Origin: Flaccisagitta enflata
Lineage: Eukaryota
Reading direction: 5' to 3'
Assembly: GCA_965153355.1 (NCBI GenBank)
Contig: OZ231126.1
Coordinates: 6,262,001 to 6,326,000 of the forward strand
DNA length: 64,000 bases
In this document: one piece after another, positions 11,374 to 60,732 of the stretch
Numbering within the stretch: position 1 is the stretch's first letter
How the letters are laid out: every line of letters starts with the position of its first letter
Made by a program: the position numbers and the translations under genes
The notes under the pieces: generated by a model
What the model saw: only the letters and a program-made list of their open reading frames with translations
What the model was told of the DNA's origin: nothing
Databases searched by the model: none

Positions 11374-12490
11374 AAAAACAACAGTCCTCGACTGTAGTCT
11401 ATCTGGTGTCTGACCCGGCTACTCAGTCTGACCCGGCTACTCAGTCTGACCCGGCTACTCAGTCTGACCCGGCTACTCAGTCTGACCCGGCTACTCAGTC
11501 TGACCCGGCTACTCAGTCTGACCCGGCTACTCAGTCTGACCCGGCTACTCAGTCTGACCCGGCTACTCAGTCTGACCCGGCTACTCAGTCTGACCCGGCT
11601 ACTCAGTCTGACCCGGCTACTCAGTCTGACCCGGCTACTCAGTCTGACCCGGCTACCAATTGCATACCTTAAAGTAAGAAAAAAAAAATAAAAAAAAAAA
11701 TTTTTTGTCAAAAAAAATTTTTTTTTTCAAAAAAAAATATTTTTTCAAAAAATAAAAATTTTTTTCAAAAAAAAAAAATATTTTTCAAAAAAAATAAAAA
11801 AATTTTTCAAAAAAAAAAAAAAAATTTCAAAAAAAAAAAAAAAAATTAAAAAAAAAAAGAAAACATTTTTTTCGAAAAAAAAAATTCTTAAGTCCAAGAA
11901 ATAATGTTACTAGATACATCATAAATACCCTTATATTTTCTTAACCAATACTCAGAATTTACTGAAATCTTGCAAGGGAGCTTTAATTGATGCAATAAAC
12001 CTTCACAACAAGTTTGAACAACATTGGTGAACTTTTACTACCATTCCCCTATGTAAATTGCACAAGTCTAGTAATTAATATTACTAGCAAAATACCCTTA
12101 TATCTTCTAAACCAATACTCAGAATTATCTGAAATCTTGCAGGGGAGCTTTAATTAATGTAATAAACCTTCACAACAAGTTTGAACAACATTGGTGAACC
12201 TTTACTACCCTTCCCCTATGTAAATTGCACAAGTCCAGGAATTAATATTACTACAAAAATAATAGGCAAAGGGTACTAAATATTTATGAATGTTGTTGAA
12301 AGTTGGTACACAGGTTAGTAATGCCCTAAAAATAACACTGACCAAGTTTCATCAACATCTGAGTTGTGGTTCTCAAGTTTTTAAGGGTTGACACGAACGA
12401 ACGAACGAACGAACGAACGAACAAACGACTCACTACACGATCAAGGCTATGTTATAGTCCTCGACGAAAACTGATCGTCGAGGACAAAAA
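11374..12490 (-). mobile_element. Long DINE-1/HINE-like (Helentron-type non-autonomous) element, copy 1
   Basis: Terminal hairpin GTCCTCGACG-N9-CGTCGAGGAC, a matching subterminal GTCCTCGAC at the other end, (ACGA)n microsatellite, ~180-bp internal repeats, an 18-bp array, A-run flanks and no TSD. Confidence 0.75.
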
Positions 12491-15903: not shown

Positions 15904-18900
15904 GGACCTCTAACAGAGGTGCAAGGACGAATATAATGATGTTGTGCCATGCGATAAGTGGATGCATAGGTGGCGTTTATTAATTTTTTCTCATAACCAT
16001 GCGTCCATGCCCTATTGGATATATATCAATATAATCCGGACGCCTTTCGCGCCTGTGGCTGATTTCTACGCCATTGTTCACTTGCACAAAGAGCATCAAA
16101 TCATGTTTGGCTTACCGCTTCCTGAGTGTTCTAGTGACTGGTTTCTGATCCATGGCGTCGTAAAGCGACGTCATGAGTCGCGAGGACGCGGTCCCAGTCA
16201 AGTCCATACTTTGCCTTTCCGCTTCCACCTGCAACGAAAAGGTGACAAATGTCCCATTGACTAGGCCAGATTTCGACTTCAATGTGCTACACTTGTCAGG
16301 AAGGATTAAGAAAAGAACAGAAAGCTAACCATATATTTGGACAGCGTCACATATCTTGACATTGGATTGGTAAGGCACCTGTTTTTTCTTTTCCTCCAGA
16401 TCTGAGATGAGCGTTTCTCTGAGTTCGACTTTTCTTTCCTCGAATTCTTTTACAGCGGCTTTGATTTCATTCCGATATTCATTTTCAATCTGCAAATATT
16501 CAATGATTATTCGTAAATACAATTTTTAGTACAATATACACTTTTTTTTATAAGAACGTCATTTTTTTTTCGAAGGCTTCATGTTCTTATTTTTAAGATC
16601 AAATGAAGCCTTCAACGTTCTTAGAGTGTTCCAATTTAAAATACTATATAAACTATAAGGAACCTTACAATATACCATTATTTGATTACATTAAATATAT
16701 TTCTATTGAATACTATTAAAACAAATGCTAAACAATAATGTCTGGGGATATTTTCTTGGTTTTTATATTAGAAATTAAAGAATTTTATCTTAATTATACT
16801 AAAGTGTTAGTGTTTTGTTAATATTCTTTAAATGTTACTTTAAGCGAAATTTTTTTCTCAAGATTTGAAGCCTTTGTATGTTCTTAAGATGTTCTTAATT
16901 TTGGGGCTATTCGAAGCCTTGATGTTCTTATAAACTAGGTTCTTAAAAAAAAGATCAGACCCAGCTACTCGATCAGACCCAGCTACTCGATCAGACCCGG
17001 CTACTCGATCAGACCCGGCTACTCGATCAGACCCGGCTACTCGATCAGACCCGGCTACTCGATCAGACCCGGCTACTCGATCAGACCCGGCTACTCGATC
17101 AGACCCGGCTACTCGATCAGACCCGGCTACTCGATCAGACCCGGCTACTCGATCAGACCCGGCTACTCGATCAGACCCGGCTACTCGATCAGACCCGGCT
17201 ACTCGATCAGACCCGGCTACTCGATCAGACCCGGCTACTCGATCAGACCGGCTACTCGATCAGACCCGGCTACTCGATCAGACCCGGCTACTCGATCAGA
17301 CCCGGCTACTCGATCAGACCCGGCTACTCGATCAGACCCGGCTACTCGATCAGACCCGGCTACTCGATCAGACCCGGCTACTCGATCAGACCCGGCTACT
17401 CGATCAGACCCGGCTACTCGATCAGACCCGGCTACTTGATCAGACCCGGCTACTCGATCAGACCCGGCTACTCAGACCCGGCATACCTGGAAGTCCATGA
17501 TGGCATACCTGGAAGTCTATGATGGCATACCTGGAAGTCTATGATGGCATACCTGGAAGTACAACAATAAAAAATGATAACTACGGAAATTTCAAAAAAA
17601 ATAATTTCAAAACAAAATTTCAAAAATTTCAAAAAAAAAAAAAAAATTTCTTTAAAAAAAAAAATTCCAAAAAAAAAAAGAAAAAAAAATTCAGAAAAAA
17701 AAATTTTCAAAAAATTTTAAGTCCAGAAATTAATGTTACTAGACTAGATACATCATAAGTACCCTTATATTTTCTTAACCAATACTCAGAATCTACTGAA
17801 ATCTTGCAGGGGAGCTTTAATTGATGCAATTAACCTTCACAACAAGTTTGAACAATATTGGTGAACCTTTACTACCCTTCCCCTATGTAATTAGCACAAG
17901 TCCAGGAATTACTATTACTAGCAAAATACCCTTATATCTTCTAAACCAATACTCATAATTATCTGAAATCTTGCAGGGGAGCTTTAATTGATGCAACGAC
18001 CCTTTACAGCAAGTTTGAACAACATTGGTGAACCTTTACTACCCTTCCCTTATGTAAATTGCACAAGTCCAGGAATTAATATTACTACAAAAATAATAGG
18101 CAAAGGGTATTGAATATTTATGAATGTTGTTGAAAGTTGGTACACAGGTTAGTACAGAGGAAGGCGAAATATAAAATGTGAACCCCCTAAAACTGTAGCA
18201 CCCCCCCTTACAGATCAAACTACATCAATAAATAATTTATATTAGGTTTTCAATTATAGCTTAGGACTATACAAGTGGCGCCACCAGGGCGATATTGAAA
18301 TTTCCACTCCAGTTCAAAATTATAGTACAAAAACCTTATTTTTATGAATATTTAAAATTAGTTCATTTTAACATGTTTATTAGTTATATTTTGAGTTAGA
18401 GGTCAAAATTTAAAAATCGCTCTGGTGGCGCCACTTCTATTGATACAAACATTCTTTCTTTACTCTAAAAATCTCTGTATATTGATTAGAGCTGTAGGTG
18501 GGGGTGCTACAGTTTTTAGGGGGTTTACACCTTGTATTTAGCACTTCTCTGTAATGCCCTAAAAATAACACTGACCAAGTTTCATCAACATCTGAGTACT
18601 GGTTCTCAAGTTTTCAAGGGTTGACACAACGAACAAACAAACAAACAACGACTCACTACACGAAAGGAATTTTCAAGGCTATGTTATAGACCACATCGAG
18701 AAATAACTCAATGTGGCCAAAAAGTGTATTTGTTGCTATTTGTTTAATTTGTTCATATACAGAACCAATGACATTACAGTGAGAGGGGCAGTCAAAATCG
18801 CTAGCAACCCTACCTGCAGCTCAAATGGTTACTACCACATGGAAAATAAAGGTGGCGCCCAACAACTTGTCCCAATTCAATTCCCGCCATCGAGGCGATT

Positions 18901-35923: not shown

Positions 35924-36918
35924 TTTGACGAGGCGGAGAGTGTCTAGAAGTAGAAACAAGTCTAGCTTTTGTAGTTATTCATGCAGAGACGACTTTCGCC
36001 ATTGCAGTTATTCCGTTGCATTTTGACAAACGACTCTCACCAGTTATTCATGCAGTCAGCACAGAGTTGTTTTTTTTTTTTTTTGTAGCTCGTATATTAT
36101 CATCTCGAAGGCGCCAATTTTGTTTCCCCTTCCTTCTTTAAGTTTCTCAGCTTTTCATACAGCCAATTTTTCTTCCCTCAAAAACCACAAGTGTTGTTTT
36201 TGTTGTTGTTGTTGTTGTTGTTGTGGTTGTTGTTGATGTGGTTGTGGTTGTTGTTGTTTTGTAAGCTGGTGTTTGTCTTGGATTTCTTCACTCTCGTTTT
36301 TCCCCAACCAAGAAGATTTTCTTCGACGGCTGATGACTAAGCGATGCGCCGATGCCTATCCATTCCTCCACATCCCGTCTCTGTCTCTGGCATAAAATAT
36401 CTTCACCACCACGAATGATGATGATGATGAATTCATTCAAACGGGGTTAAAGAGTGCGAGTGAAGAAAGGGAAGTCATGCTTAATCATATCTGGATAGAC
36501 TGGCCAAGTTGTCGCGGCCGAATTCTATGTGGGTTTTCTTTTTTCGTGTGACTCGCTTGCATCATCTTTAAGGGTTTTTTTTTTTAATCTTTGAGCCATG
36601 GGCACGTTATGGAGAAAACCCAATCATTAATAACATGTTAAGCATCTGTTGAACAACGTAAAGTTTGTACGTTTCAAAAAAAAAATTATCAGATTTTTTT
36701 TCAACGAACTGGAAAATCGGCACATGTTAGACATGTTCAATGAATGCTATGTCAACGGACTTACAAATCAGCGATGAGCGCGAAAAAAGAAAGAGGGAAA
36801 TGATTTTTTAGTTGCGGACACGCAATTCTATAAGAAGCATTGTCGGTCCGTCGGTCCGTCGGTCCATCCAGTTACATGGTGATCGAGTCAAAAAGTGGAA
36901 AAACGGGCGTTTCAGATA

Positions 36919-37320
36919 CAGAAGCAATGAAAATACAATAAGAGGAGCAGCCAAAATCTCTAGCAACCCCCCCTGCAGCTTAAATGATTAATATTAAATT
37001 AGCTTTTAAGGTAGCAGCTTATAACTTGTCCTAATAGAATTCCCGCCATCAAGGCAATTTTTTCATTTCAACTTAGTTTTCAAGAAACGGCCTATTAAAG
37101 GGTCAAAATCGACCGTTTTTGCAAGTGTTGAAGTTTGCCCAATTTTGGCTATTATCTCAGTTACTATGAAGAAATTGAAAAATTGCCTTGATGGCGGGAA
37201 TTGAATTGAAATATACTAGCATCTACCATTTCACTCACCCCTATTATATTCACAGTAAAAGCTGCAGGGGGGGTTGCTAGAGATTTTGCGACTCCTCGCA
37301 TTGTATTTTCATTGCAACTG
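36919..37320. mobile_element. TA-flanked MITE family B, copy 2, nested in a short HINE-like repeat (~36805-37430)
   Basis: TA|CAGAAGCAATGAAAATACAAT...ATTGTATTTTCATTGCAACTG|TA, colinear with 18760-19160. Confidence 0.82.
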
Positions 37321-37700
37321 TATTTTTTGTGAATGTTTGATTGTAGGGGTGGGGTTGAAGTGTGGAGGGTGTTTGGACGCCCCTGCCCACACGTCCGCAA
37401 CGATTTTGTGACCTCGCGTCACTTATTCATCACATCGGACGATTTTCTTGTTAGTGATCAAGACGGAACGAGTAACATAGAGCGTAAACAGGGCGTGAGA
37501 ATCCCATAACACTTAAATGATAACGTAACAGAGAATTAACAACGAAAATGGTCATCTTCCAATCGATGGATCAAAATGAGGCAAGTAAAAAAAGATGGGA
37601 AGGACATCCGATGAAGGGAAAAGAAGCGGAAGACCGATGTGATGAGTGAGTGAGTGAGTGAGTGAGTGAGTGAGAGAGAGAGAGAGAGAAAGAGTGAGAG

Positions 37701-46248: not shown

Positions 46249-49200
46249 ATGTGTGAAAAGTCAACGGTCGTCGGGGTTGTGAGTTTGGCTATTTTGGCGA
46301 CAGTCATTGGGTATGCGAATTAGCTAGCTTAAAACGAATTCAGTTAGGCCGTTAGGCAGGATTACATGCAGATATTGGCTAATAAAGAAGGCTAACCGCC
46401 AGGTGGAAGCGCCAAAACATATGTACAGGGGTATTGCATGATGAGTTTTTCCTTCTCTTTCGTTTGTCAAGATCGAGTTTGGCACGAAGCAACGTGACAA
46501 ATGCTACCAACGGAACTTTGAGTACAAATTCTGAAAGCGCAGTCAAAGTAGCAAGTCATGCACAGGTGTGTATGATCAAAGTTTTGGTGTTTAGGTGCTT
46601 ATAAAAACCTCAGTCGTATCATCTCATCATCGACGCGTCAGGTATTGACTGGTACAGCAAATATTATTTCATTACTGGTATACACTCTTTATTTTGAGTA
46701 AGGACAAAGTTTATAAGGACATTGAGGCTGAGATTTAGCCAAAAATTAAGGACATTTTAAGGACAAGGCTCAGCCTCAGATAAGACCTCAGCAAAAATCT
46801 TCTCTCAAGTGAGATTCTTAAATTCAGCTTTATGTTGAATTGTTGATATGTGTTTATTTTCTTTCAAAACTAATTTGTCATATCTTTATTATTTTTTATT
46901 TTATTTAGTTAGGTATAGTTACATTTGACAATAGTTAGATACTTGCCTTGCGAAGAAAAAATTAAGGACATTTCAAGAACATTTCAGCCTCAAATTTTTG
47001 ATAATTTAAGGACATCCGAGGCTCAAAAAAAATATACTGGTCCTTAAAAAAAATAAAGAGTGTAGTAAATATTAGCAGGGGGTGGTAAGCTAAAACGTCG
47101 GGGTGCAAACGAAGCCAAAATTTGAATTTCATTTACATTAAACTAATACATATAGTTATCCATATGGGTAATAAGTTTTGTAATAAAAAATTTATACTCC
47201 TGATTTTTTTAGAAATTTAAGAATATAATCACAATATAAAAAGTTTCTATTGCATATTCATGAAGACAGAAGTTATTCAATAAAACATGAGAATTTCTCC
47301 TAAAAATCAGAGGAAAAGTTCAGAAAGCTGTTAGGTAAAATTATAATTCTGCTTTTGAATGCAAAATTTTGCATTTCTAAACATATCATCATATGAGTCT
47401 TTAGAAAGACGCCATGTTTTTGAAAATGACAATTTTTGAATCTCTATGCAAAGTTATAATTTTACCTAAGACATGTCAGATAGTAAAAAGAGATTTCGCT
47501 TAAAAACTCCTTTTTTTCTGTCCTTCATCCTCACATTTCATGGTTAATTTGGACTCAAAAATGGTTTTTAATGCAACAAGGCCGGATACACGGCTACCCC
47601 AGTCGCGTGCAGGTGGGCAGTGGCCATAATTGAGGTCAGTGGAACATTTGGGCAGGAGCAATAAAGCCAAAACCCCCACTAACGCCGAAAAAGTAAAATG
47701 TGATGGACGGACGGACAGACGGACGGACAAAGCGGAGTGTAGAGTCGCGTAGCACGCGACTAAAAATACTTTAAACAAACTGATAATCATTTTTCATTAA
47801 TGATTGCAAATTAACAATATCTATCACACTGCTAAAAAAAATGTTGACAGATCAAATTTTGTCTTCGATTGCACCTTGACTGAAGCATTTTTCAGCGTTT
47901 TTTAGCATTTTTTAGCATTTTCTAGCATTAATATTTCTCCTTTCTGCTGAGCTGCTAAAACACTGGTAAATTCCGCCTTTATTTTAGCTTTTTTGAGTGG
48001 TGTTTAGGCTTTTAATGTTTTAGCATTCCATGTTTCTGCAATTTAAGTGTTTTAGCACAGTTTAGAAATTCCTTTATCTTGGTGCTTCAACACATTAGTG
48101 TTTTAGCAGTATTTACAATTATCCTTGCTTCAAATGTTTTTAAATATTCAGCGTTTTAGCATCAATTTGTGTTTTAGCATCTTAGTGTTTTAGCTAAGTC
48201 AGTGTTTTAGCGGAGTTGGTGTTTTAGTCTGGTGTTTTAGCATGATGGTGTTTTAGCTCATTTTTATGTTTTAGCTCAGTGTTTTAGTACAGAGGAAGGA
48301 GAAATATAAGATGTGAACCCCCCTAAAACTGTAGCACCCCCCCTTACAGCTCAAATTATACCAATGAATAATAAATTCAACATTGGTCCTTTCCGAAATC
48401 AGGCTGACGGTGAGAGCCTCAAAAGGGTCAAATTTCAAAATGTGTTTTATACAAATTTCCTTTTCTTACTATCTAATATGATGTTTGAGGGGTTGGAAAA
48501 CAAGTTTCATATAACTTAGCAGGACCTCAGTTTCCCGTGAGCGGCAATTTCATTCAGAAGTATACAAATTAGGAAAAAAATCATCTTTTGCCAAGACTAA
48601 GCCTTCAAAAACATTTCTCGTGTCTCGTTTACGTGGTTGAAACATACATACTGTTACAAGAAGGTTCTCTCATAGCCAGAAACGAAAAAGCTTTTCAGAT
48701 TCTACCGAATCATGCAAATTAGGTTGACTTATTATGCTGGATAAAGCTAGGAGAATCGAGAAACAAAATGTCTTCGTAAATCAGTGCTCTGTTTTTTTTT
48801 TTCGAATAGCCTTTTGTTGCCCTGAAAGTTAGCACTTTGTTTTCAAAAAAGTAAGAAACTTTCAGGGAGCGTTACAAGCCTACAGGCAACATACGTCACA
48901 TTAACAGGGTAGTCAGGCCCAGAATTGCAGCCTTTTGCCATAAAAACAAAAAATGTTTACACTGTACAATTGACTTTTCTCATGTAAACACTCGGCCATG
49001 ATCGAATACGTTTTCAGTAAGTGAATCTATATCAATTAATCATTGTTCTCAATTCTGCTTTAAGACACAGTTATGAAATATTAAAATGGAGTCAAAGGGA
49101 CGGGGTAGGCCACGGCAAACCTGTACTGATGAAAAGCAAGAGCGCTCGCGAGAGTTACAGCGCCTACGGACTGCCAAATCTAGGGAGGGGACGCGTGTTG

Positions 49201-52200
49201 TGGAAGGAAATAGCGAACTGAATAAAGGCGGACGACCAAGAAGAGAGGATGGGACGGAGGAGGAAATGGAAAAATTGAGAAAACGGCGAGAAAGGTACGA
49301 GAGGCGTAAGGCAGAGAAAAAGGCGAATGGACGACCAAGGAAGGCGGAGGATACGCCGGAAACCGAGAAAAAGAGAGAGAAGGACAGACGGTATCGAGAG
49401 AGGAAGAAGGAGAAACTCTTGAAGATTAAACTATTTCCTAGATTACACGAGTCACACGTGCTTAGTGAGACAACCGGTGAAACACCCGATGATACTCACA
49501 AAGATCGGGTCGGAGATACACACGGAGACGCGCTTCGAGACACGCTTGGAGACACGCTTGGAGACACGCTTGAAGACACGCTTGGAGACACGCTCGAAGA
49601 CACGCTTGGAGACACGCTCGAAGACACGCTTGGAGACACGCTCGAAGACGCGCTTGGAGACACGCATGGAGACACGCTCAAGGATTTCCCAGCTTCAATT
49701 CTAAAATCTCTTCCCAATGTGAGTTGAGTGGATACGGCCATTACACTTTTTTTTATAAGAACATTTTTTTAAGCCTTTAAAAGAGAAAGAGATAACTTCT
49801 AATTTTTGGGCATTTTGAAGCCTTGATATTCTTATAAACTAGGTTCTTATAAGAACAAGGCCAAGTTATGGCCAATAAGTGCGCCTCGCTTGATTAAGAA
49901 TTTGTGGATTAACGTTTTGAACGAATGAATGAATGAATGAATGAATGAATGAATGAATAAAAGAATGAAAATGAGCGTGGTGAGGCATAAGAAGTGATAG
50001 TAATGAAGACGACAGAATTGGCCGTTTTGAGCGATTTAAACGATTGCGTTACCGACCGACCGACCGACCAACCAACCGACAGACATGACCTCTTATAGAA
50101 GTGCGAGGACGCACTTAAAAAGTGCATGTGAGATTAAAGAGGGAAGAAATCAAAGGTCATGGAATTATATACACTCCTATAAAAATTTAAAAACAGACGT
50201 GGGAGCGTAGTCTTGCAATATGGCATGCGACAGATGATGGAGGATGTATATAAGCTTTATGCAACAAAGTTGTCAAAATACTGGGTTTCAGCTTTTATAA
50301 GAAGCAAAGCTGGAACTGGGTCTTTAAAAAAGAAAAAAAATTGTAATTGTACATTTGGCAAAGCACAAGGAAAATAAACAAAACCAGATACACAACTACC
50401 CAAATCGCATACGGGCGGGCAGGGGTAATACCGTGGTGCAAAAACCGCGCGTAAACGCAAAAAAAAAAAAAATTAAGATGAACCAACCGACAGACGGACA
50501 TGGCAGGCCATAGTCAAGTTCACGCGACTGGAAAGACCATTTGCATCCTTTTGTACATCCAAATATTTTTCTCTTTTCAGGGGTAGGAAAGCTAAAAAGT
50601 TTTTAACTCGTTTTAACTCTTTTTAACTCTTTTTTAAATATTAAAAGTTATAATGAGTTAAAAAGAGTTAAAAAGAGTTAAAAAGAGTTAAAAAGAGTTA
50701 AAAAGAATAAAAAAGAGTTAAAAAGTTTAAAAAACTTAAAAAGAGTTAAAAAAAGTTAAAAAGAGTTAAAAAGGGTTGAAAACTTGATTCAAATTGTATC
50801 ATCTGAAAAAGTCTAAAAAGACTTAAAAAAAGTTAAAAAGGTGGACTAAAAAGTGTTAAAAAGTATTAAAAAGTGTTAAACAGATAGTCTAAAAAGAGTT
50901 AAAAAATGTTAAAAAGATAGTCTAAAAAGTGTTAAAAAGTGTTAAAAACATAGTCTAAAAAGAGTTAAAAACAGTTAAAAAGATGGACTAAAAAGTGTTA
51001 AAAACCGTTAAAAACATTTGCTAAAAAGAGTTAAAAACAATTAAAAAATTGACTTATACGAGTTAAAATCAGTTGAAGATCTACCTTTAAGTTTTAAAGT
51101 GGAAACTCCATCTAACATCCATATCTGACTACAAAATCATTTGAAACATTTGAAACCACAGCACCTGGAGTTTCACCTATGAGCAATAAGAACAAATGGA
51201 AAGAAAATATAAAATCAACTTGAGTCAACATGAAACAAGGCCGAATCCAGTCGCGGACAGTTGGACAGGAGCAGTAATGCAAAAACCGCTTGGAATTCAA
51301 AAATGTGACGGACCGACGGACCAACTTACCAACTGACATGGCAAGGTGTAGAGTCGCGTGTCCGCGACTAAAAATGTCAGATGGGAAAAAACCTTTTGAA
51401 CTCTTACACATCCTTTCAACTTAAGTTTTTTAACTCTTTTTAACTTTTTTTAACTCTTTTTAACTTTTGTTTTTAACTCTTTTTAACTTTTTTTAACTTT
51501 TGTTTTTAACTCTTTTTAACTTTTTTTTTTAACTCTTTTCAACTTTTTTTAATTCTTTTTTTTTAATTCTTTTTAACCCTTCTTTTTAACTATTTTTTAT
51601 TCTTTTTAACTCTTTTTAACTCTTTTTAGCCTCAGTTTTTAACCTATACTTTTTAACTGATTTTTGTTGAACTTGTACAAGGTATTACCTTTTAACTCTT
51701 TTTAACTCTTTTTAACTCTTTTTAGAAAAAGTACTTCCAACTTCAGTTTTTAACTTTTTTCAACGGGGGTTTTTAACCCTTTTTAACTCTTTTTAATTCT
51801 TTTTAACTCAACATTAAAAGTTATAATGAGTTAAAAAGAGTTAAAACGAGTTAAAAACTTTTTAGCTTTCCTACCCCTGTCTTTTACAGCCAAAGCGAAA
51901 ATCCCAAGAGGTTCTTCTCTTGTCTCCCTCCAAAGAGGTTCAAGGTCGGTTTGTTCGTCCGAGCGATGATGTCACGCCAAAGGAAAACTCAGCTATGGCG
52001 TCATGGAGACCAAAGCGACGACGGTCATCGTCCTTATCGTCTTCTGCTCCAAATTCCAATCCATCATCTCCTTCCTCCTCACGCTGCTCTTCTCCAGCCC
52101 CAGCTTCCACGGTGTCAACTCCTTCATCCTCTCGTTGCTCCTCTCCAGCCCCAACAACAATCTCAACTCTATCGTCGTCACGCTGCTCTTCCCCATCTCC

Positions 52201-53731
52201 CTCATCTTCATCACGATCTTCCTCTATTGTAAGACGAGGACCCAAATTGAAACGGGACAAAGATGGAGTGGGTGATGAAAAGAAAAAGAAGGAAAAATTA
52301 AGAAAGCGGAAGTGGAGGAGGAAAAAAGAAAAGGACGAAAGGGAAGGAGAAAGATTGAAAGTTGAAAACCGCCAAAAGAACAAAGCGCGCATCAACGATT
52401 TCCGTCGCCGTCAGAGAGAAAACGTCGAGAAAGAGGAAGAGTCGGTGGAATCTGACATCGCAAGAAAGATTGTTACAAATCTTCGGGCTCGTTTGGACAA
52501 AAATAGAGGTACATGCAGCTATTTGAAAGTTTTGGTGATCAAGTTACCTGCATAATCAAAAATTCCTCTAAGCCAGAAACAAGGTCGTATACACGGCCAA
52601 TACCAGTCGCGGACGGGTGGGCAGGAGCGGAAATGCGTGTTTTCTCACTTTTCGACTCGATCACCACGGACCGACCGACCGACCGACCGACCAACCAGCG
52701 GACGGACGGACAAAGCCTCTTATAGAGTCGCTAGTCCGCGACTAGAAAATGCAATCCCAACTGTTACTGTATGAGAAGTTCTAAAACCTTTGATATTTTT
52801 AGTCGCGTACACGCGACTCTATTATCTTGTTGGTTCATCCGTCTGTTGGCCTGTTACGCTCTGCGTTTTTTTCGTTTTTAAGATGTTTTTATTACTTACT
52901 ACTCCTGCTCAAATGGTTCGTTAGTCTATTTCATCACTGGTCCTGCCCATCCCCACGCGACCTAGGTAGCCATGTATATAGCCTTTAGTTGCATGTACAG
53001 AACTACACTTCTCAGTCCGTCCATCAGTTTGACCGTTCATGTTAACATATTGCACGCACGTAACTAATAGGTTATGGTCTTGTTTGCTCAGGAAATGGAA
53101 CAATGGACAAGGAAGAACGGGCGTTTCGCCGAATGATTGCTCGAGCAGTTGTTGCCGGTCCTGAGCCATTGACGCGTGACGAGATCCATGCCAGTCTGGG
53201 AATCAGCAAGAACATGGTGGCGGATGCTCGGAAGGCTGAGGCGGAAGAAAAGCAACGAGTAACTGAGGCTCGTGCTACCGGTCGTCGCCTTAAATCGCGC
53301 CTTGTTACCAGTGCACTCGAGCGTCGTCGAAAAACAAACAAGATGGCTGAAATGCGTCAAAAAGTAAAAACATTTTACATAGCAAAATCGACTCCGACAT
53401 CAAGAAGAAGGGACGTCATGAAATGTTGGGTTAGTTGACGGGACTAAAAGCACAATTCTCTTTATGAATTTTTAGTCGCGTGCACGCGACATTACACCCG
53501 GATTGTGGGTCTGTCCGTCAGTCGGTCCATCACACTTTTACTTTTTTATCAATCTTATTTCTTTAAGTCATTTTAGATCAATCACTTTAGTCGCGGACTA
53601 GCGACTAAGAGGCTTTGTCCATCCATCCGTTGGTCTGTTGGTAATGATCAAGTTCAATAGTGCGAAAACGCTCATTTGCGCCCATGCCCACCCATTCGCG
53701 ACTGGTATTGGCCTTGTTTTTCAAAAGATGA

Positions 53732-53781
<50 letters not shown>

Positions 53782-56700
53782 AAGAGACGCAGTAATGCAA
53801 GAGGGCAGGGGCTGTGATATTAAGTCATCCAAAATTTTGCGTTACAGACAGAGACCTATCAAAAGCCCTAGCAAGCGACCAAAAACCAATGGCAAAATAT
53901 TGTAATAATGAAGGTGGAATAATGTAAGTGTTTTTGACTATAGGTATCGGGAGTTCAAGAGACGCATCAAAAACGGTTCCTCTCCGACACCATCACTCGA
54001 CTTCACATCGAATTTGTTCGTCGACATGGCCGAATTTCACGTGGTCGGTTCTTCTCTTTGCGACCAAAATGGGTTCTCCCCCCAAAAGACTTAGACCGAC
54101 TGGTACATCGTTTGTTACTGATTAAGGACTCAATAGGGTTGTAGATAGTGCGAGGGGGGTCAATAACAAAAAAATTGATGGTTCATTTGCTGTGATTTCC
54201 ATACTTTTGACCAAATATGAAATATCTAAACCAGGTTAATTTTTGTTCCAACAGGTATGCCTTTGCTCCACTCACACGAAGTTGAAGTTTGCCTTTGAGG
54301 ACTTTATCAAAGCCAGCAAGAAAAATGGCATTTCCTTGCCGGATATCGACCACTACGTGGAACTCATTGACGAATTTCTCTGCTCAGAGGATGAGCGAAC
54401 GAGAGATTGCCTGAAGGAGAAGTGCAGCAACTGTGGCATAAAGTCACTTGACATGCCTCTCTTTGAGCCATTTTTGCGGGGAATCGACAACAGCGTAGTT
54501 ACTTATCGCTCATTGGAAAAAGACGAAAATGGCCGTCTGGGTATTCAAGATAAATCTGGGACGCCTCAACAACTTGTCGATCATTTGAAAAACCAACTGC
54601 GCGGATTTCCTCTTCATCGATTTGTCGCCAAAAATCAACCAAAGGAGATGAATTTCCTACTCAAAAACTTAAATCCAGATGTGTTGGTCCTGTCCAGTGA
54701 TTATGCAGAAAAGTATCAGCGGAAAGAGTTTGAAGAGATACAGAGCATCCACTGGCACGCTCACTCTCTAACGATTTTCACCACCGTCGCTTTTTTCCTG
54801 ATCCCCGATCCTGACAACCCTCATGCATTCAAAAAGACCAAAGTCTACTTTTTCATAACAACCGAAAGACCTGAACAAGATAACTATTTCGCCGCGTTTT
54901 GTTACCGCCTCATCATCAAGTGGATCCATGACAATTTCAAACTAACCTTCACATCTTGCGTTTTCGGATCAGACAGATGCGGACAACAGTTTTGTAGTCG
55001 CAAGGTCTTTGGTTCCATCGCTGAGTCAAGACGAAATCTGTGCCTCAACCACACAACCACCGCTCCATTGTGCCCCAATTGTCCTCAGGCCATCATCCAC
55101 TTCACCGGCGCGGGACATGGCAAAGAAGAACACGACCATGTAGGCGCTTATGGTAAAACCAAGATGAGACTGGAAGAGTTGCATCAACGCCCACTTCGTA
55201 GCATCGAAGATGTCGCGAACTTTCTCCAGACCCTCAACTTTGTCGACGTACATAAGACCAAGTCTGGCAAAGAAGACACCAAAGGCTTTTTCTACAGTGG
55301 TTTCCATGCAGAGGTGGTGGAGCCAGCTGCCGTTCATACTTCCAAAATAGATTGGGATCCAATTGATCAAACCCGAACCCTACACCAGCTCATCACAACG
55401 GGGGTGTCAGGAGAACTCTTGGTTCATGAGTCCAGTTGCTTTTCCTGTGCAGAATGTGAATTTGGAAATTATGCTGCCTGCAAACGCACAGAGGAGCTTG
55501 GACCAATCAAAAAAGTCGTGATGAGTCGCGCTTCATCCAACTCCTCAGCACATAAAGCCGGTAGATCCCGGGCAGCGCAAGACTTACATCGTTACGAATG
55601 CGCCAAGCTTGCCCAGTCTGGCTCAATCATTGCAATAACTCAAGGTCAACATCAACACTTGAACCTCATTCTTGTTACCAAGGCCATGGGAGAGCTGACT
55701 GACCCAAATTTGCTGAAAGGGAGAGTCCTCATTAAGACCAAAACTGCCAATGAATTCACATCATTAGGCTCCAAACTGCTCTCCTTCAGCGCAGAGCTGG
55801 TTAGATCACCACCTCTGGATATTCAGATTTCCCAAGTCACTGTCAATGGCAAGATTGCAACGATTTTTCATATCGGTGAGCTCGAATTCAGCAGCCTTGT
55901 GGCAGAGTATCAATTTTGAGTTTTAAACATGTGCTTTGGGAGAACGAGGGATGACAGATTTAGTTTATCTCTTGTTTACATGTTTTTATCCACATCGCGA
56001 CAGTCACGTCGCATCTTATGAAACTGTTCATTCTTTTTTTCGGGATGTTAACTTAGTCTCAATGACCTACATTTTTCAATGACTCGAATATGCAGACCTG
56101 ATGTCACTTGTCGTTTATTCTCATCTTTCCTTCATTTCTTCTTACATGCTGTCTACGACATTCTCTATTACTATTGGTATGTGCATTTGTCATAGTTACA
56201 ACAAAAAAACTGCCTAGAGACATTTGCTTTGCATTTGAATTGATTCCGAAGTTTGTGAGCTTGGTATGTGCTCGTTTGTATTTTTCTCGGGTGAAAGTTG
56301 TATAAAAAAATTTCAAAAACTAACCATATGCTGGGTGACTGGGCCGAGTTTGTCGGGCTGGATTTGTAAAGACATGAACACGCGACTTGTGATGTATTTT
56401 TAAGCATTCACATCAAGTTAGAGCTCAATCCGATTAAGTTTCTTCACTACTCACATCGTCTAGTTGGTATGATAATATGCCCATAGATTATTTTTAAATT
56501 ATGAACTGTTGCCTCCTGACTATTCATACAAAACTTTAACCAAATTGGTTGAAAAATGCCAAAGCTATACACGTTTTTGACTTTTAGGCTGGTAGGCTGG
56601 TTGGGTGGTAGGCCAGTTTGGCTGGTTAGCATACTAAAATCTTTATAAATCGAATTCATATGTGGAGTCCTTCCATTTAGAGACTACATACCAAGTTACA

Positions 56701-59700
56701 ACCGAATTGGTTGAAAAATGCCAAAGTTATGCACGTTTTTCACTTTAAGGGATGTAGGCTGGTTGGGTGGTAGGCTAGTTTGGCCGGTTAGCATGCTAAA
56801 ATCTTTACAAATCAAATACATATGTTGAGTCCTTCCATTTAAAGTCTATATACCAAGTTTTAACCAAACCGGGTGAAAAATGCTAAAGTTATGCACGTTT
56901 TTCACTTTTAGGGATGTAGGCTGGTTGGGTGGTAGGCTGGTTCGGCCGGTTAGCATGCTAAAATCTTTACAAATCAAATACATATGTTGAGTCCTTCCAT
57001 TTAAAGTCTACATACCAAGTTTTGACCAAACCGGATGAAAAATGTCTAAGTTATTGCACTTTTTCATTTTGGTTGGTTGGCTGGTTAGCTGGTAGGCTGG
57101 TTTGGCTGGTTGGTTGGGTCGTATCCATATGAATCTTACTTCACTGATAAGTCGGTGTCTTTAGCACTTGTGTTTCAAATTTGAGCCAGATCGGAGAAGT
57201 ACTTTAGTTTTTATTTAAGTTTTTGTACAGCTATATCCCACTCTTGAATTACGCGGCAAAGCGTCGAAACGTCCAAACTGTTACAATTACATCATCTCCT
57301 CCATTTCTTCTAGAGAAAGGGTCAAGAAATGAGCGACCTGCCTTAAAAATTAAATCGGACGTCGCCAACTATTTATTCTTGAATGAGTAACTGTTCAGTA
57401 CGTTCTTCATGGACATACGCGAATTTGTGGCACAAGATAAAATAGCGGGACCCATAAGGGACTATTAAAAAGCGTCGAAACGTCCAAACCGTTACAATTC
57501 ACGGAGAAAATTGACACCCTGAAAACTTGGGTGTCAAATCATCGAAGCGCCGTAGAAACTTACGTGAGCGCAGATCAGGATTACTACGGTCAAAGACAAA
57601 GATGAAAAGTCTCATGATACAAACACTAATAATGCAAATAAAATAATAAAAACTATTACTATTTTTTGCCTATTATCGGACGAAATTGCGCATTGCCTCG
57701 ATAGATACAAACATGCCTCATTTTCTTCAAATTTATCTTTTTCATGCCTTTTTTTTTGCTCAGGTCTTGTCATTTGGGACAAGATGAGATGAAAAACGAT
57801 CACGTATGACGTTTTTTTGTTCTTTTTATGTTTAACATTACAAAAAATAGCAAATGTTACAAATTTGTTACATGAGAAATCCCCCATTTCAGCATAGTTA
57901 TATCATAAAAATGAGACATTTTTACGTGCCTACTCCAGATATTTAGGTATATTTCTTTCACTTTTGCCTCAGGGTATTACTTTAAGTCAGCCAATGCAAT
58001 AGAGAGCCGATAGGGAGAGAATTATTAGCTCAAAACTACTAAAAATTGGACCGTCAGCTAAAATTTGGAAAGGACCCATTGGTAACTAAAGCTTATGACT
58101 ATACAAGTGGCGTCACCAGAGCGATTTTGCAATTTCCATTCCAGTCTCAAATTATAGTGGAAAATCCTTGATTTTATGAACTTATAATAATATTTAATTT
58201 CAATACTTTATTAAGCCATATCTTGACTTAAAAAATCAAAATGAAAAATCGCTCAGGTGACGCCACTTGTACTAATATAAACATTTTTCTTCTACCTTTA
58301 GAATGTCTATAATCTAATCGGTTAGAGCTGTAGGTGGGGGTGCTACAGTTTTCAGGGGGTTCACACCTTATATTAACCTTCTCTCTGTAGTTATTTTAGC
58401 AAATTTTAAAAGTGTTTTAGTATTGTGAGGTGTTTTAGCAATATACTTAGTTTTAGCAATGAGTTTTAGCTAAAGTTTTAGCAATTTTTAGCGTGCTTTA
58501 GCAATTTTTAGCATGTTACAGCATATTTTTACTGTTTTAGCATATTTCTCCTTTCTCGGAAATGATCCTAAAAATGCTAAAAAATGCTAAAAAACGCTTT
58601 AGCTTACCACCCCCTGTATTAGTTTATTACAGAATAGCGGTTAGAGAGATTTAACAGCACTGACTAAATCATTGGACAATATTTTACAATCAGGCCACTC
58701 CAAGTGTCTTGGCAGCCACAGCGATGATGGCTTCTACGATTGGCCTAGTCGCCGCACTTCGACAACGGGCGTCCTCAGAAGGTGTGTTTCTACATAAATT
58801 CAAGCCGAATACTCTTGTCAGTCCCAGTTGGGGAGGGAAAGGGCACTGGGCAGGGGCAGAAACATGCTAGTTTTCATCAGGATATGCCTTTCATACGCAC
58901 CGTGTCACAATTTCTACTAACAGTGGTAACGAAGGGTGATCAAAAGCGGAAACGAAATCGTAGGAGTCGGCTTGGGAAAATAGTCGACGGCGGCGGCAAG
59001 GCGAGACGCCAGATGCTAACCGCCAAAGATGAGCAAGACAAGAAATGGAAAAAGGAAGATTTTATAAAATTCATCAAGGGGAAAGTCTTAGACGGAGTTG
59101 ATATCGAGGAATGGAAAGAAATCTCTCAGGTTGCAGGGGTGTATTTAATTGAATTTATTTCCCCCAGGGGTGTATTTAATTGAATTTATTTCCCCCCCCC
59201 CCCCATGCCTTTTTCTTCGCATTGTGTTGCGTCATAAAAACTATGGTTTTCTTCCCCACAAAGCAATAAAACAGTATAGTATAATTAGTATAGGTTTAAA
59301 TAGGGTTAAACTGTGTTGTAGTAATCAAATTTTTACTTTTGGTACTACCAAAAGTACTAAATCTTTAAAAAAAAAGCTTAAAAACAACAGTCCTCGACTG
59401 TAGTCTATTTGGTGTCCAACCCGGCTACTCAGTCTGACCCGGCTACTCAGTCTGACCCGGCTACTCAGTCTGACCCGGCTACTCATTCTGACCCGGCTAC
59501 TCAGTCTGACCCGGCTACTCAATCTGACCCGGCTACTCAGTCTGACCCGGCTACTCAGTCTGACCCGGCTCCTCAGTCTGACCCGGCTACTCAGTCTGAT
59601 CCAGCTACCAATTGCATACCTTAAAGTCCATGATGGCATACCTTGAAGTTCATGGTGGCATACCTTGCAGCCTATGATGGCATACCTTGAAGCCCATGAT

Positions 59701-60732
59701 GGCATTCCTTGAAGTCCATGAAAGCATTTTTAAAAAAAAATAAAAATTTTTTTCAAAGAAAAAAAAATATTTCAAAAAAAAAAAAAATTATTTCAAAAAA
59801 AAATTTTTTTCGAAAAAAAAATATTCTTAAGTCCAAGAAATAATGTTACTAGGTACATCATAAATACCCTTATATTTTCTTAACCAATACTCAGAATTTA
59901 CTGAAATCTTGCAGGGGAGCTTTAATTGATGCAATGAACCTTCACAACAAGTTTGAACAACATTGGTGAACCTTTACTACCATTCCCCTATGTAAATTGC
60001 GCAAGTCTAGGAATTAATATTACTAGCAAAATACCCTTATATCTTCTTAACCAAAACTCAGAATTATCTGAAATCTTGCAGGGGAGCTTTAATTGATGCA
60101 ATAAAACTTCACAACAAGTTTGAACAACATTGGTGAACCTTTACTACCATTCCCCTATGTAAATTGCACAAGTCCAGGAATTAATATTACTACAAAAATA
60201 ATAGGCAAAGGGTATTAAATATTTATGAATGTTGTTGAAAGTTGGTACACAGGTTAGTAATGCCCTCAAAATAACACTGACCAAGTTTCATCAATATCTG
60301 AGTTGAGGTTCTAAAGTTTTTAAGGGTTGACACAACGACAAACGACTCACTACACGATCAAGGCTATGTTATAGTCCTCGACGTAAACTGATTGTCGAGG
60401 ACAAAAATTTTTTTCAATCTTTTGATTTTTCCCCCGTCCCCAAATTTTTTTATTTTATTCCCCCCAACTTTATACACGCCTGTCAGGTTGTCAAAGAGAA
60501 CCTCGCCAACGCCGACGCCCCAGCCGAGCAAATCACCGAAGCTCTCGAACAATGGGAAGAAGCTGACCAAACCGTTCAACAGAAATTGGAAAATGGAGAA
60601 GAGATCGACTGGGAAGCAGTGTTTAAGCAAGCGGAGCAACTACACCCACAAAACAGAATTTTCAGTACGATCGTTTTTGGTACCGTTTATGGTGTCTTTA
60701 CTGCAGTGGCATCGTCCTGCAGTATTTCTTGA
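46249..60732 (+). CDS. Uncharacterised ~231-aa membrane protein (signal peptide, hydrophobic segment, C-terminal hydrophobic tail ending CSIS)
   Basis: Five GT-AG exons join without frameshift: 46249-46310, 46472-46565, 58694-58781, 58924-59129, 60487-60732 (696 nt). Translation: MCEKSTVVGVVSLAILATVIG-SSLARSNVTNATNGT...ATPSVLAATAMMASTIGLVAAL...RIFSTIVFGTVYGVFTAVASSCSIS*. No family recognised. Confidence 0.6.
46683..47062. mobile_element. TA-flanked CAC...GTG MITE
   Basis: TA|CACTCTTTATTTT...AAAATAAAGAGTG|TA with repeated TAAGGAC motifs. Confidence 0.75.
49086..55919 (+). CDS. Sola2-like DDD transposase, five exons, ~1137 aa
   Basis: Exons 49086-49718, 51890-52508, 53092-53429, 53944-54102, 54255-55919 splice in frame (3414 nt). 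Motifs: QKRFL...FFSLRPKWV...CLCSTH; C-x9-C-x4-C-x2-C; DYAEKY...EIQSIHW (D at 54699); SDRCGQQF (D at 54972); GHGKEEHDHVG (D at 55134). N-terminal GRPR AT-hook-like motifs. The family call is from remembered motif patterns. Confidence 0.85.
49744..50124. mobile_element. Short CAC...GTG MITE (family of the 16539 element) with a short HINE-like insert (~49853-50120) in its right TIR
   Basis: CACTTTTTTTTATAAGAAC ... CTTATAAACTAGGTTCTTATAAG [insert] AAAAAGTG. Confidence 0.65.
50578..51879. mobile_element. Non-autonomous hAT-like element in transposase intron 1
   Basis: TIR of about 50 bp (CAGGGGTAGGAAAGCTAAAAAGTTTTTAACTC...), 6-bp TSD TCTTTT, and GAGTTAAAAA arrays in both orientations. Contains a short HINE-like insert at ~51233-51373. 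Confidence 0.88.
56520..57120. repeat. ~180-bp tandem repeat, about 3.3 copies, in the 3' non-coding part of the Sola2-like element
   Basis: Recurring GAAAAATGCCAAAGTTATGCACGTTTTTCACTTT...GTAGGCTGGTTGGGTGGTAGGC...GAGTCCTTCCATTTA. Confidence 0.85.
59381..60407 (-). mobile_element. Long DINE-1/HINE-like element, copy 3
   Basis: Colinear with 11374-12490, including both ends and the hairpin. Confidence 0.75.

Follow-up and report, generated by a model that had tools for sequence, protein, structure and literature searches.

What kind of enzyme moves a 10-kb DNA element that lies between TA dinucleotides and ends in CAG...CTG, the type of terminus familiar from Tc1/mariner transposons, while its predicted protein is unlike that group in sequence? 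This question is raised by a 64,000-nucleotide stretch of the Flaccisagitta enflata genome (assembly GCA_965153355.1, contig OZ231126.1, positions 6,262,001 to 6,326,000 of the forward strand), referred to here as the window, whose internal numbering is used for all coordinates. At 48290–58387 of the window the initial annotation, made from the sequence without database searches, had placed an intact, intron-containing Sola2-like transposon with a TA target duplication. Based on the results presented below, the locus is probably a structurally complete, autonomous 10,098-bp cut-and-paste transposon that encodes a DDD transposase of about 1137 amino acids from a family spread across eukaryotes.

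The element occupies 48290–58387 (10,098 bp) between matched inverted ends, with TA on either side. Its arms, 48288–48355 and 58322–58389 (inverted pair I16; 68 nt including the TA, 82% complementary), are the sole long inverted pair that spans the region. The left terminal inverted repeat (TIR; 48290–48355, forward strand, about 66 bp) starts with CAGAGGAAGG, and the left junction reads ...ttttag TA CAGAGGAAGG..., while the right TIR (58322–58387, reverse strand, about 66 bp) ends with CTCTCTG, and the right junction reads ...CTCTCTG TA gttatt.... The right TA (58388–58389) was read directly, and the duplication at the left TA (48288–48289) is deduced from the empty sites of a 397-bp sister copy. 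In a DNA sequencing run of the same organism, contigs derived from other copies depart from the element sequence directly past 58389. With both arms and flanks read directly, the proposed outline of a 10.1-kb element bounded by TIRs and TA, with CAG...CTG ends, could be retained. On both of its sides (48138–48289 and 58390–58600), the 10-kb element is embedded in arrayed short repeats, degenerate and similar to GTGTTTTAGC.

The window contains a second copy of the family, as had been suggested from the sequence: a 397-bp non-autonomous derivative on the forward strand (18153–18553 including the flanking dinucleotides; element 18155–18551), with TA on both sides. A 402-bp miniature inverted-repeat transposable element (MITE) of a related family, also on the forward strand (36917–37322; element 36919–37320), reads TA-CAGAAGC...GCAACTG-TA and carries the same subterminal block. 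The six ends of these three insertions (the 10.1-kb element, the 397-bp copy and the related 402-bp MITE) were aligned. TACAG is invariant in all six, the termini are CAG...CTG throughout, the subterminal block AAAAnCTnTAGCAnCCCC...CAGCT is conserved across the six ends, and no conservation was observed outside the TA.

The nature of the target site was read from the 397-bp copy. The filled site has the form ggttag-TA-[397 bp]-TA-atgccc, and two paralogous empty sites within the window (12319–12320 and 60258–60259) read ggttag-TA-atgccc with a single TA each. Because the empty sites keep one TA and the filled site has two, the TA duplication is directly supported, in agreement with the initial annotation. 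Over about 150 bases, both empty sites match the filled one at approximately 97% on the left and 79–83% on the right (96.7% and 82.8%, respectively, over 152 bases at 12319–12320). Over 40 bases on each side, the sequences are identical at 12319–12320, and identical or nearly so over both sites. All three insertions are flanked by TA only. The filled and empty sites belong to three paralogous copies (12002–12460, 17836–18703 and 59941–60377) of a segment that has a repeat of ~167 bp within it, and the middle copy alone has the 397-bp MITE.

The spliced protein carries a D(90)D(53)D triad formed by D732, D823 and D877, the codons of which are located at 54699–54701, 54972–54974 and 55134–55136. 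In exon-5 numbering these residues correspond to D149, D240 and D294; they are found in the blocks DFAENY, FSDGCxxQYKS and HGKGxxDxxGG, and are invariant in 54 aligned sequences. In the same numbering, a Cys cluster (C43, C52, C57, C60) and an H/C4 cluster (H377, C395, C398, C401, C409) were identified. All residues of the latter, as well as C43 and C52, are invariant in the 54 aligned relatives, and C57 and C60 are conserved in at least 90% of them. Thus, both the triad and the Cys/His clusters named in the initial annotation were recovered, with full invariance apart from C57 and C60.

An AlphaFold (AF2) model with a predicted local distance difference test (pLDDT) of 90.1 and a predicted template modelling score (pTM) of 0.76 was compared with known structures. 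Residues 130–349 of the model match retroviral integrase cores best (Z 10.0; root-mean-square deviation (rmsd) 3.6; 152 aligned), followed by IstA (Z 9.3), Mos1 (Z 8.3) and Hermes (Z 7.5). Residues ~445–525 of exon 5 (window ~55587–55829) resemble Tudor/chromo-type barrels (TDRD3, PHF19, MTF2; Z ~6.4, rmsd 2.4, 60 aligned) and also the SH3-like C-terminal domain of integrases; judging from the model, this barrel could act as a chromatin- or DNA-contact module. The likeness to retroviral/LTR (long terminal repeat) integrases and to IS21 IstA is one of fold only: they provide the best structural matches to the core (Z 9–10), and chains of two-domain integrases can in addition be superposed on the C-terminal barrel with a high rmsd, whereas identity is about 10%, no rve Pfam match was obtained, and the N-terminal region is a different one. 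A Foldseek search of PDB returned nothing at E ≤ 0.001, and the exon-5 protein had no match in PDB by sequence or profile. Similarly, the 554-amino-acid catalytic exon matched none of the Pfam families at E ≤ 1, and neither did nine long relatives or the catalytic region of the 54 relatives have a Pfam match. According to its residues and its modelled fold, the protein has an RNase H-like DDD core of the DDE/D transposase type.

The five exons, all on the forward strand, join to 3414 nt, that is 1137 codons plus the terminal stop, with no internal stop, and the four introns (2171, 583, 514 and 152 nt) are all GT..AG. Exon 1 (49086–49718; 211 codons, starting with ATG) encodes three GRP[RK] motifs and holds, at 49524–49678, a tandem repeat with a 12-bp unit. 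Exon 2 (51890–52508) is Ser/Pro-rich, then Lys/Arg/Glu-rich, and just its last ~67 codons are matched by a relative. Exon 3 (53092–53429) gives a weak helix-turn-helix signal (HTH_20, E = 0.068, below the cut-off), and exon 4 (53944–54102) was assigned from its GT..AG flanks and the alignment with a relative. Exon 5 (54255–55919; 554 codons plus stop) encodes the Cys cluster, the RNase H-like core, the H/C4 cluster and the small C-terminal barrel. Junctions 2/3, 3/4 and 4/5 are spanned without gaps by the contiguous open reading frame (ORF) of relative P0180 (373 amino acids, 59% identity) and by that of P0009, and junctions 3/4 and 4/5 by that of P0047 as well. Intron 1 and the start codon are predicted, and the one in-frame ATG of exon 2 (codon 36) offers an alternative start that would give a protein of ~890 amino acids. 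Thus, for the five-exon ORF of ~1137 amino acids put forward in the initial annotation, the open spliced frame stands and junctions 2–4 are matched by relatives, but intron 1 and the exon-1 start are without outside support. The three AT-hook-like motifs described there do exist as GRP[RK] at residues 7, 49 and 82, but the Pfam AT_hook model scored the N-terminus at E = 0.57 only.

Several repeats are nested in the non-coding parts of the element. Intron 1 harbors an unrelated 1302-bp MITE (50578–51879; inverted pair I19) with 55-nt TIRs (98%), an apparent 6-bp duplication TCTTTT, CAGGGG...CCCCTG ends, and an interior in which a 10-bp unit is repeated in arrays of either orientation. This MITE has its right end 10 bp ahead of the exon-2 acceptor. 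Two opposite copies of a ~100-bp repeat, 76% complementary, are found at 52591–52694 (intron 2) and 53614–53717 (intron 3). The non-coding 3' part of the element (55920–58321) includes a 162-bp tandem repeat (3.6 copies, 56535–57111), for which the DNA run shows a very high abundance. In that run, the repeats at 56535–57111, 51287–51629 and 52316–52658 reach summed contig depths of 1–2 million, compared with ~80–110 for single element contigs.

The same DNA run yielded perfect contigs over the element, plus further copies at least 90% identical to it. The exon differences listed from other DNA contigs fall at third codon positions in 18 of 28 cases (binomial p = 0.0008), an excess that is as expected of a protein under constraint. 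A deletion form, in which 48377 is joined to 58079 with five filler letters between them, was also present in the run, and it is the kind of product that gives rise to MITEs. Overall, the locus is a real DDD transposon that was probably recently mobile, and it belongs to a multi-copy family with MITE derivatives.

Relatives of the transposase are numerous. In total, 812 proteins were detected at E ≤ 1e-3 among 1.84 billion representatives. The closest one (91% identical) originates in a marine assembly. Among those with names, the nearest (51–52% identity) are from the copepod Caligus rogercresseyi, and more distant ones, all of them 'uncharacterized', belong to a sea cucumber, a nemertean, a gastropod and a green alga. 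The names of 30 relatives were looked up, and none of these was a transposon name, the entries being 'uncharacterized' or 'hypothetical'. One Caligus rogercresseyi protein (P0169, 51% identical) is named '(S)-beta-bisabolene synthase', which looks mis-transferred, and an OTU-like cysteine protease domain was found in 4 of 54 relatives (best E 1.5e-4). In a FastTree phylogeny of 60 rows, the window protein falls in an eight-member clade (SH-like support 100) with a long stem, sister to P0009. A word-indexed profile search returned the close clade only, and the word-indexed search for 'longer' proteins returned none. The enzyme family is thus large and eukaryote-wide, and it has no Pfam model.

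Genomic scans were made for relatives with flanking DNA. The metagenome scan gave one short locus, and no relatives were found in the viral scan. The scan of prokaryote genomes gave ten loci (L002–L011) on contigs of two Sedimenticola metagenome-assembled genomes (MAGs) and one Pacebacteria MAG, with open frames of 425–997 amino acids; L002–L006 are intron-free (921–997 amino acids). The MAG contigs of L002–L011 and L014–L023 carry eukaryote-type ORFs (this family and DUF7869), and probably represent host DNA binned with bacteria. L004 has a longer, degenerate TIR. Three loci at which both ends are present are degraded, and their flanks (CTAT/TATA, TACT/ATAG, TAAA/AATG) have no readable duplication length. 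A search for further copies of the L008 end matched only L008 itself.

Several observations weigh against the reading of the locus as a complete transposon that duplicates TA. The left and right TIRs of the 10.1-kb element are only 82% alike. No homologue backs exon 1, intron 1 or residues 1 to ~350, and there is a microsatellite in exon 1; no AATAAA was found in the 680 bp downstream of the stop. RNA data came from a polyA run of the same organism (X21, ~6% read) and from two metatranscriptome contig sets (X10 and X13); depth was zero on every exon bin in all three, and X10 and X13 cover nested repeats and the element ends only. Among the related MAG loci, five (L005, L006, L008, L009 and L011) have TIRs of the form (T)GACG...CGTC(A), not CAG...CTG; the tree group labelled 'GACG_termini_loci' also took in L002–L004 and L007, which are not among these five. 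Finally, in both insertions of the exact family a G precedes the left TA. As to the first of these points, the arms of the 10.1-kb element are matched by the 397-bp copy at 90% (left) and 94% (right), and the same left/right differences recur in that copy. Because of this recurrence, the 82% likeness of the TIRs appears to reflect a built-in asymmetry, not decay.

The zero RNA depth over the exons, together with introns and a 3' part loaded with nested repeats, would suit a silent or dead relic, in which the frame is still open and the element no longer moves. A dead copy, however, has to be reconciled with an open frame of 3414 nt, matched ends with TA, and several copies at 90% identity or more with a third-position bias, and a single, partly read RNA run cannot demonstrate silence. 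We treat a relic as a real possibility, though not as the probable state of the element. As for the word 'intact' used in the initial annotation, it is borne out in the sense of an open frame with matched ends, activity and the splicing of intron 1 being predictions.

The assignment to Sola determines what the combination of enzyme and target means. If the enzyme is of Sola type, the 'atypical lineage' proposed in the initial annotation stands; if not, the comparison falls away. The three motif blocks of the enzyme may be Sola-like. GRG...CYC termini, named for Sola2 in the initial annotation, were not found here, all six ends being of the CAG...CTG type. In the literature, 4-bp duplications are stated for Sola, including Sola2 (PMC3627910, PMC10741241), just as the initial annotation had stated, and those of Sola2 are of AWWT type (PMC3627910). 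Sola transposases are described there as DDD enzymes (PMC10741241), and Sola as being without any Pfam model (PMC5751038). Compared by description only (PMC3627910, PMC10741241, PMC4455052, PMC5751038), Sola (Sola1/2/3) and the present element are alike in the DDD triad of an RNase H-like transposase, the lack of a Pfam model and the wide eukaryotic range, as well as in Sola being large (2–9 kb, some >15 kb) with very variable TIRs. They are unlike in the duplication, published as 4 bp for Sola and found as a 2-bp TA here. No paper linking Sola to a 2-bp duplication was found in the literature searched, outside Repbase Reports, Dfam and supplements, which may bear on the claim; in PMC10741241 and PMC3627910, the '2-bp' mentions alongside Sola refer to Tc1/Mariner or ESv-1.

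In the ESM Atlas, Pfam DUF7869 (PF25273) is the one neighbor of the protein that has a family name. Profile-profile comparison aligned it over the three catalytic blocks (probability 92%, E 5.8e-7, 162 columns). The PF25273 hidden Markov model did not match the window protein, nor any of the 54 relatives at E ≤ 0.1, and with the family profile as query, no DUF7869 ORF was hit at E ≤ 10. From these sequence comparisons, the relation to DUF7869 appears to be remote, at the profile-profile level only. Such a tie recalls how Sola is portrayed in the literature, as a set of several very distant groups, without naming them. The literature search found no paper on DUF7869.

By exclusion, it is fairly likely that the enzyme belongs to the Sola superfamily, and Sola2 in particular is conceivable but somewhat doubtful. 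The competing view is that the enzyme lies outside Sola, in a superfamily not yet described or named, as a copepod-type clade that uses TA. This would accord with the missing Pfam matches (the protein, the nine long relatives and the catalytic region of the 54), the missing PDB sequence match, the named relatives being all 'uncharacterized' or 'hypothetical', and the departure from the published 4-bp duplication. However, since Sola itself is without a Pfam model (PMC5751038), the lack of a Pfam match is what Sola would give, and the DDD triad is as published for Sola (PMC10741241). Moreover, as circumstantial evidence, 'TIR/sola2' elements are reported to be common in Lepeophtheirus salmonis, a caligid copepod (PMC12241861), and the closest named relatives of the enzyme come from another caligid. 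We consider a non-Sola superfamily rather unlikely.

The G that precedes the left TA in both insertions of the exact family leaves some room for a duplication other than 2 bp, either with GTA as the duplicated unit or with TA as part of the element and nothing duplicated, the more so as TA is self-complementary and hence also extends the inverted repeat. Both variants are very unlikely. The exactly one TA in the empty sites is not readily explained if nothing was duplicated. With GTA as the duplicated unit, the two ends would differ by one base, yet CAGAG is common to all four family ends, and the related 402-bp MITE has an A before its left TA, which excludes GTA for its own family. The caveat of the initial annotation is therefore correct as to the G, but the symmetry of the TIRs and the A-TA flank oppose the longer duplication.

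An enzyme of the IS5/Harbinger type (PIF/Harbinger-ISL2EU), to which ISL2EU elements with their 2-bp duplication belong, was tried and rejected, no DDE_Tnp_4-like Pfam match having been found in the protein or the 54 relatives, and the third catalytic residue being D. A divergent Tc1/mariner/pogo element is highly improbable: although it would share the TA duplication, the TA-CAG-type termini, the RNase H-like core with Mos1 among the structural matches, and the MITE derivatives, none of its Pfam models (DDE_1, DDE_3, Transposase_1) matched at E ≤ 1, the catalytic residues are spaced at 90 and 53, the second interval being ~34–41 in that group, integrases and IstA outscore Mos1, and the ~1137-amino-acid protein of this 10-kb element has about three times the length, carries Cys/His clusters and is encoded by a gene with four introns. 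In its favor, TA is called a hallmark of Mariner (PMC3627910).

Returning to the reading of a complete DDD cut-and-paste transposon with a TA target, the domain order of the transposase would be an AT-hook-like low-complexity N-terminus, a helical and Cys-cluster region, the DDD core, the H/C4 cluster and the small C-terminal barrel. We infer the chemistry, the DNA binding and the present-day activity of the enzyme along the following lines. The AT-hook-like motifs and the helical/Cys region may bind the conserved subterminal block of the ~66-bp ends, and the DDD site would cut at the CAG/CTG termini. The ends would then be joined to a TA at which the two strands are cut 2 nt apart, and the TA would be duplicated on repair. 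The same enzyme or its near relatives may move, in trans, short deletion derivatives (MITEs) in which the ends are retained. The element is described here as working like a Sola-type or generic DDD cut-and-paste transposon with a Tc1-like target, and is not filed here as a member of Sola. As a tentative and rather speculative proposal, a clade of Sola-type DDD transposons, so far known from copepod-like marine animals, may have moved from 4-bp to strict 2-bp TA duplications and gained Tc1-like TA-CAG ends. Unrelated transposases would then have converged on one target, and the element may still be active.

Target duplications take their length from the stagger between the two strand-transfer events, and this length serves as a superfamily diagnostic, also in the classification of MITEs without coding capacity. 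Should Repbase/Dfam already list the family as a curated TA-type group, the present result amounts to an ordinary annotation. If a DDD enzyme from outside Tc1/mariner does use TA and CAG ends, its MITEs would be filed as Tc1/mariner, and a comparison of the two kinds of enzyme would be a natural way to ask how the stagger is determined. As a complete copy with matched ends, the element is a candidate for an excision/integration assay, and possibly a new gene-transfer vector.

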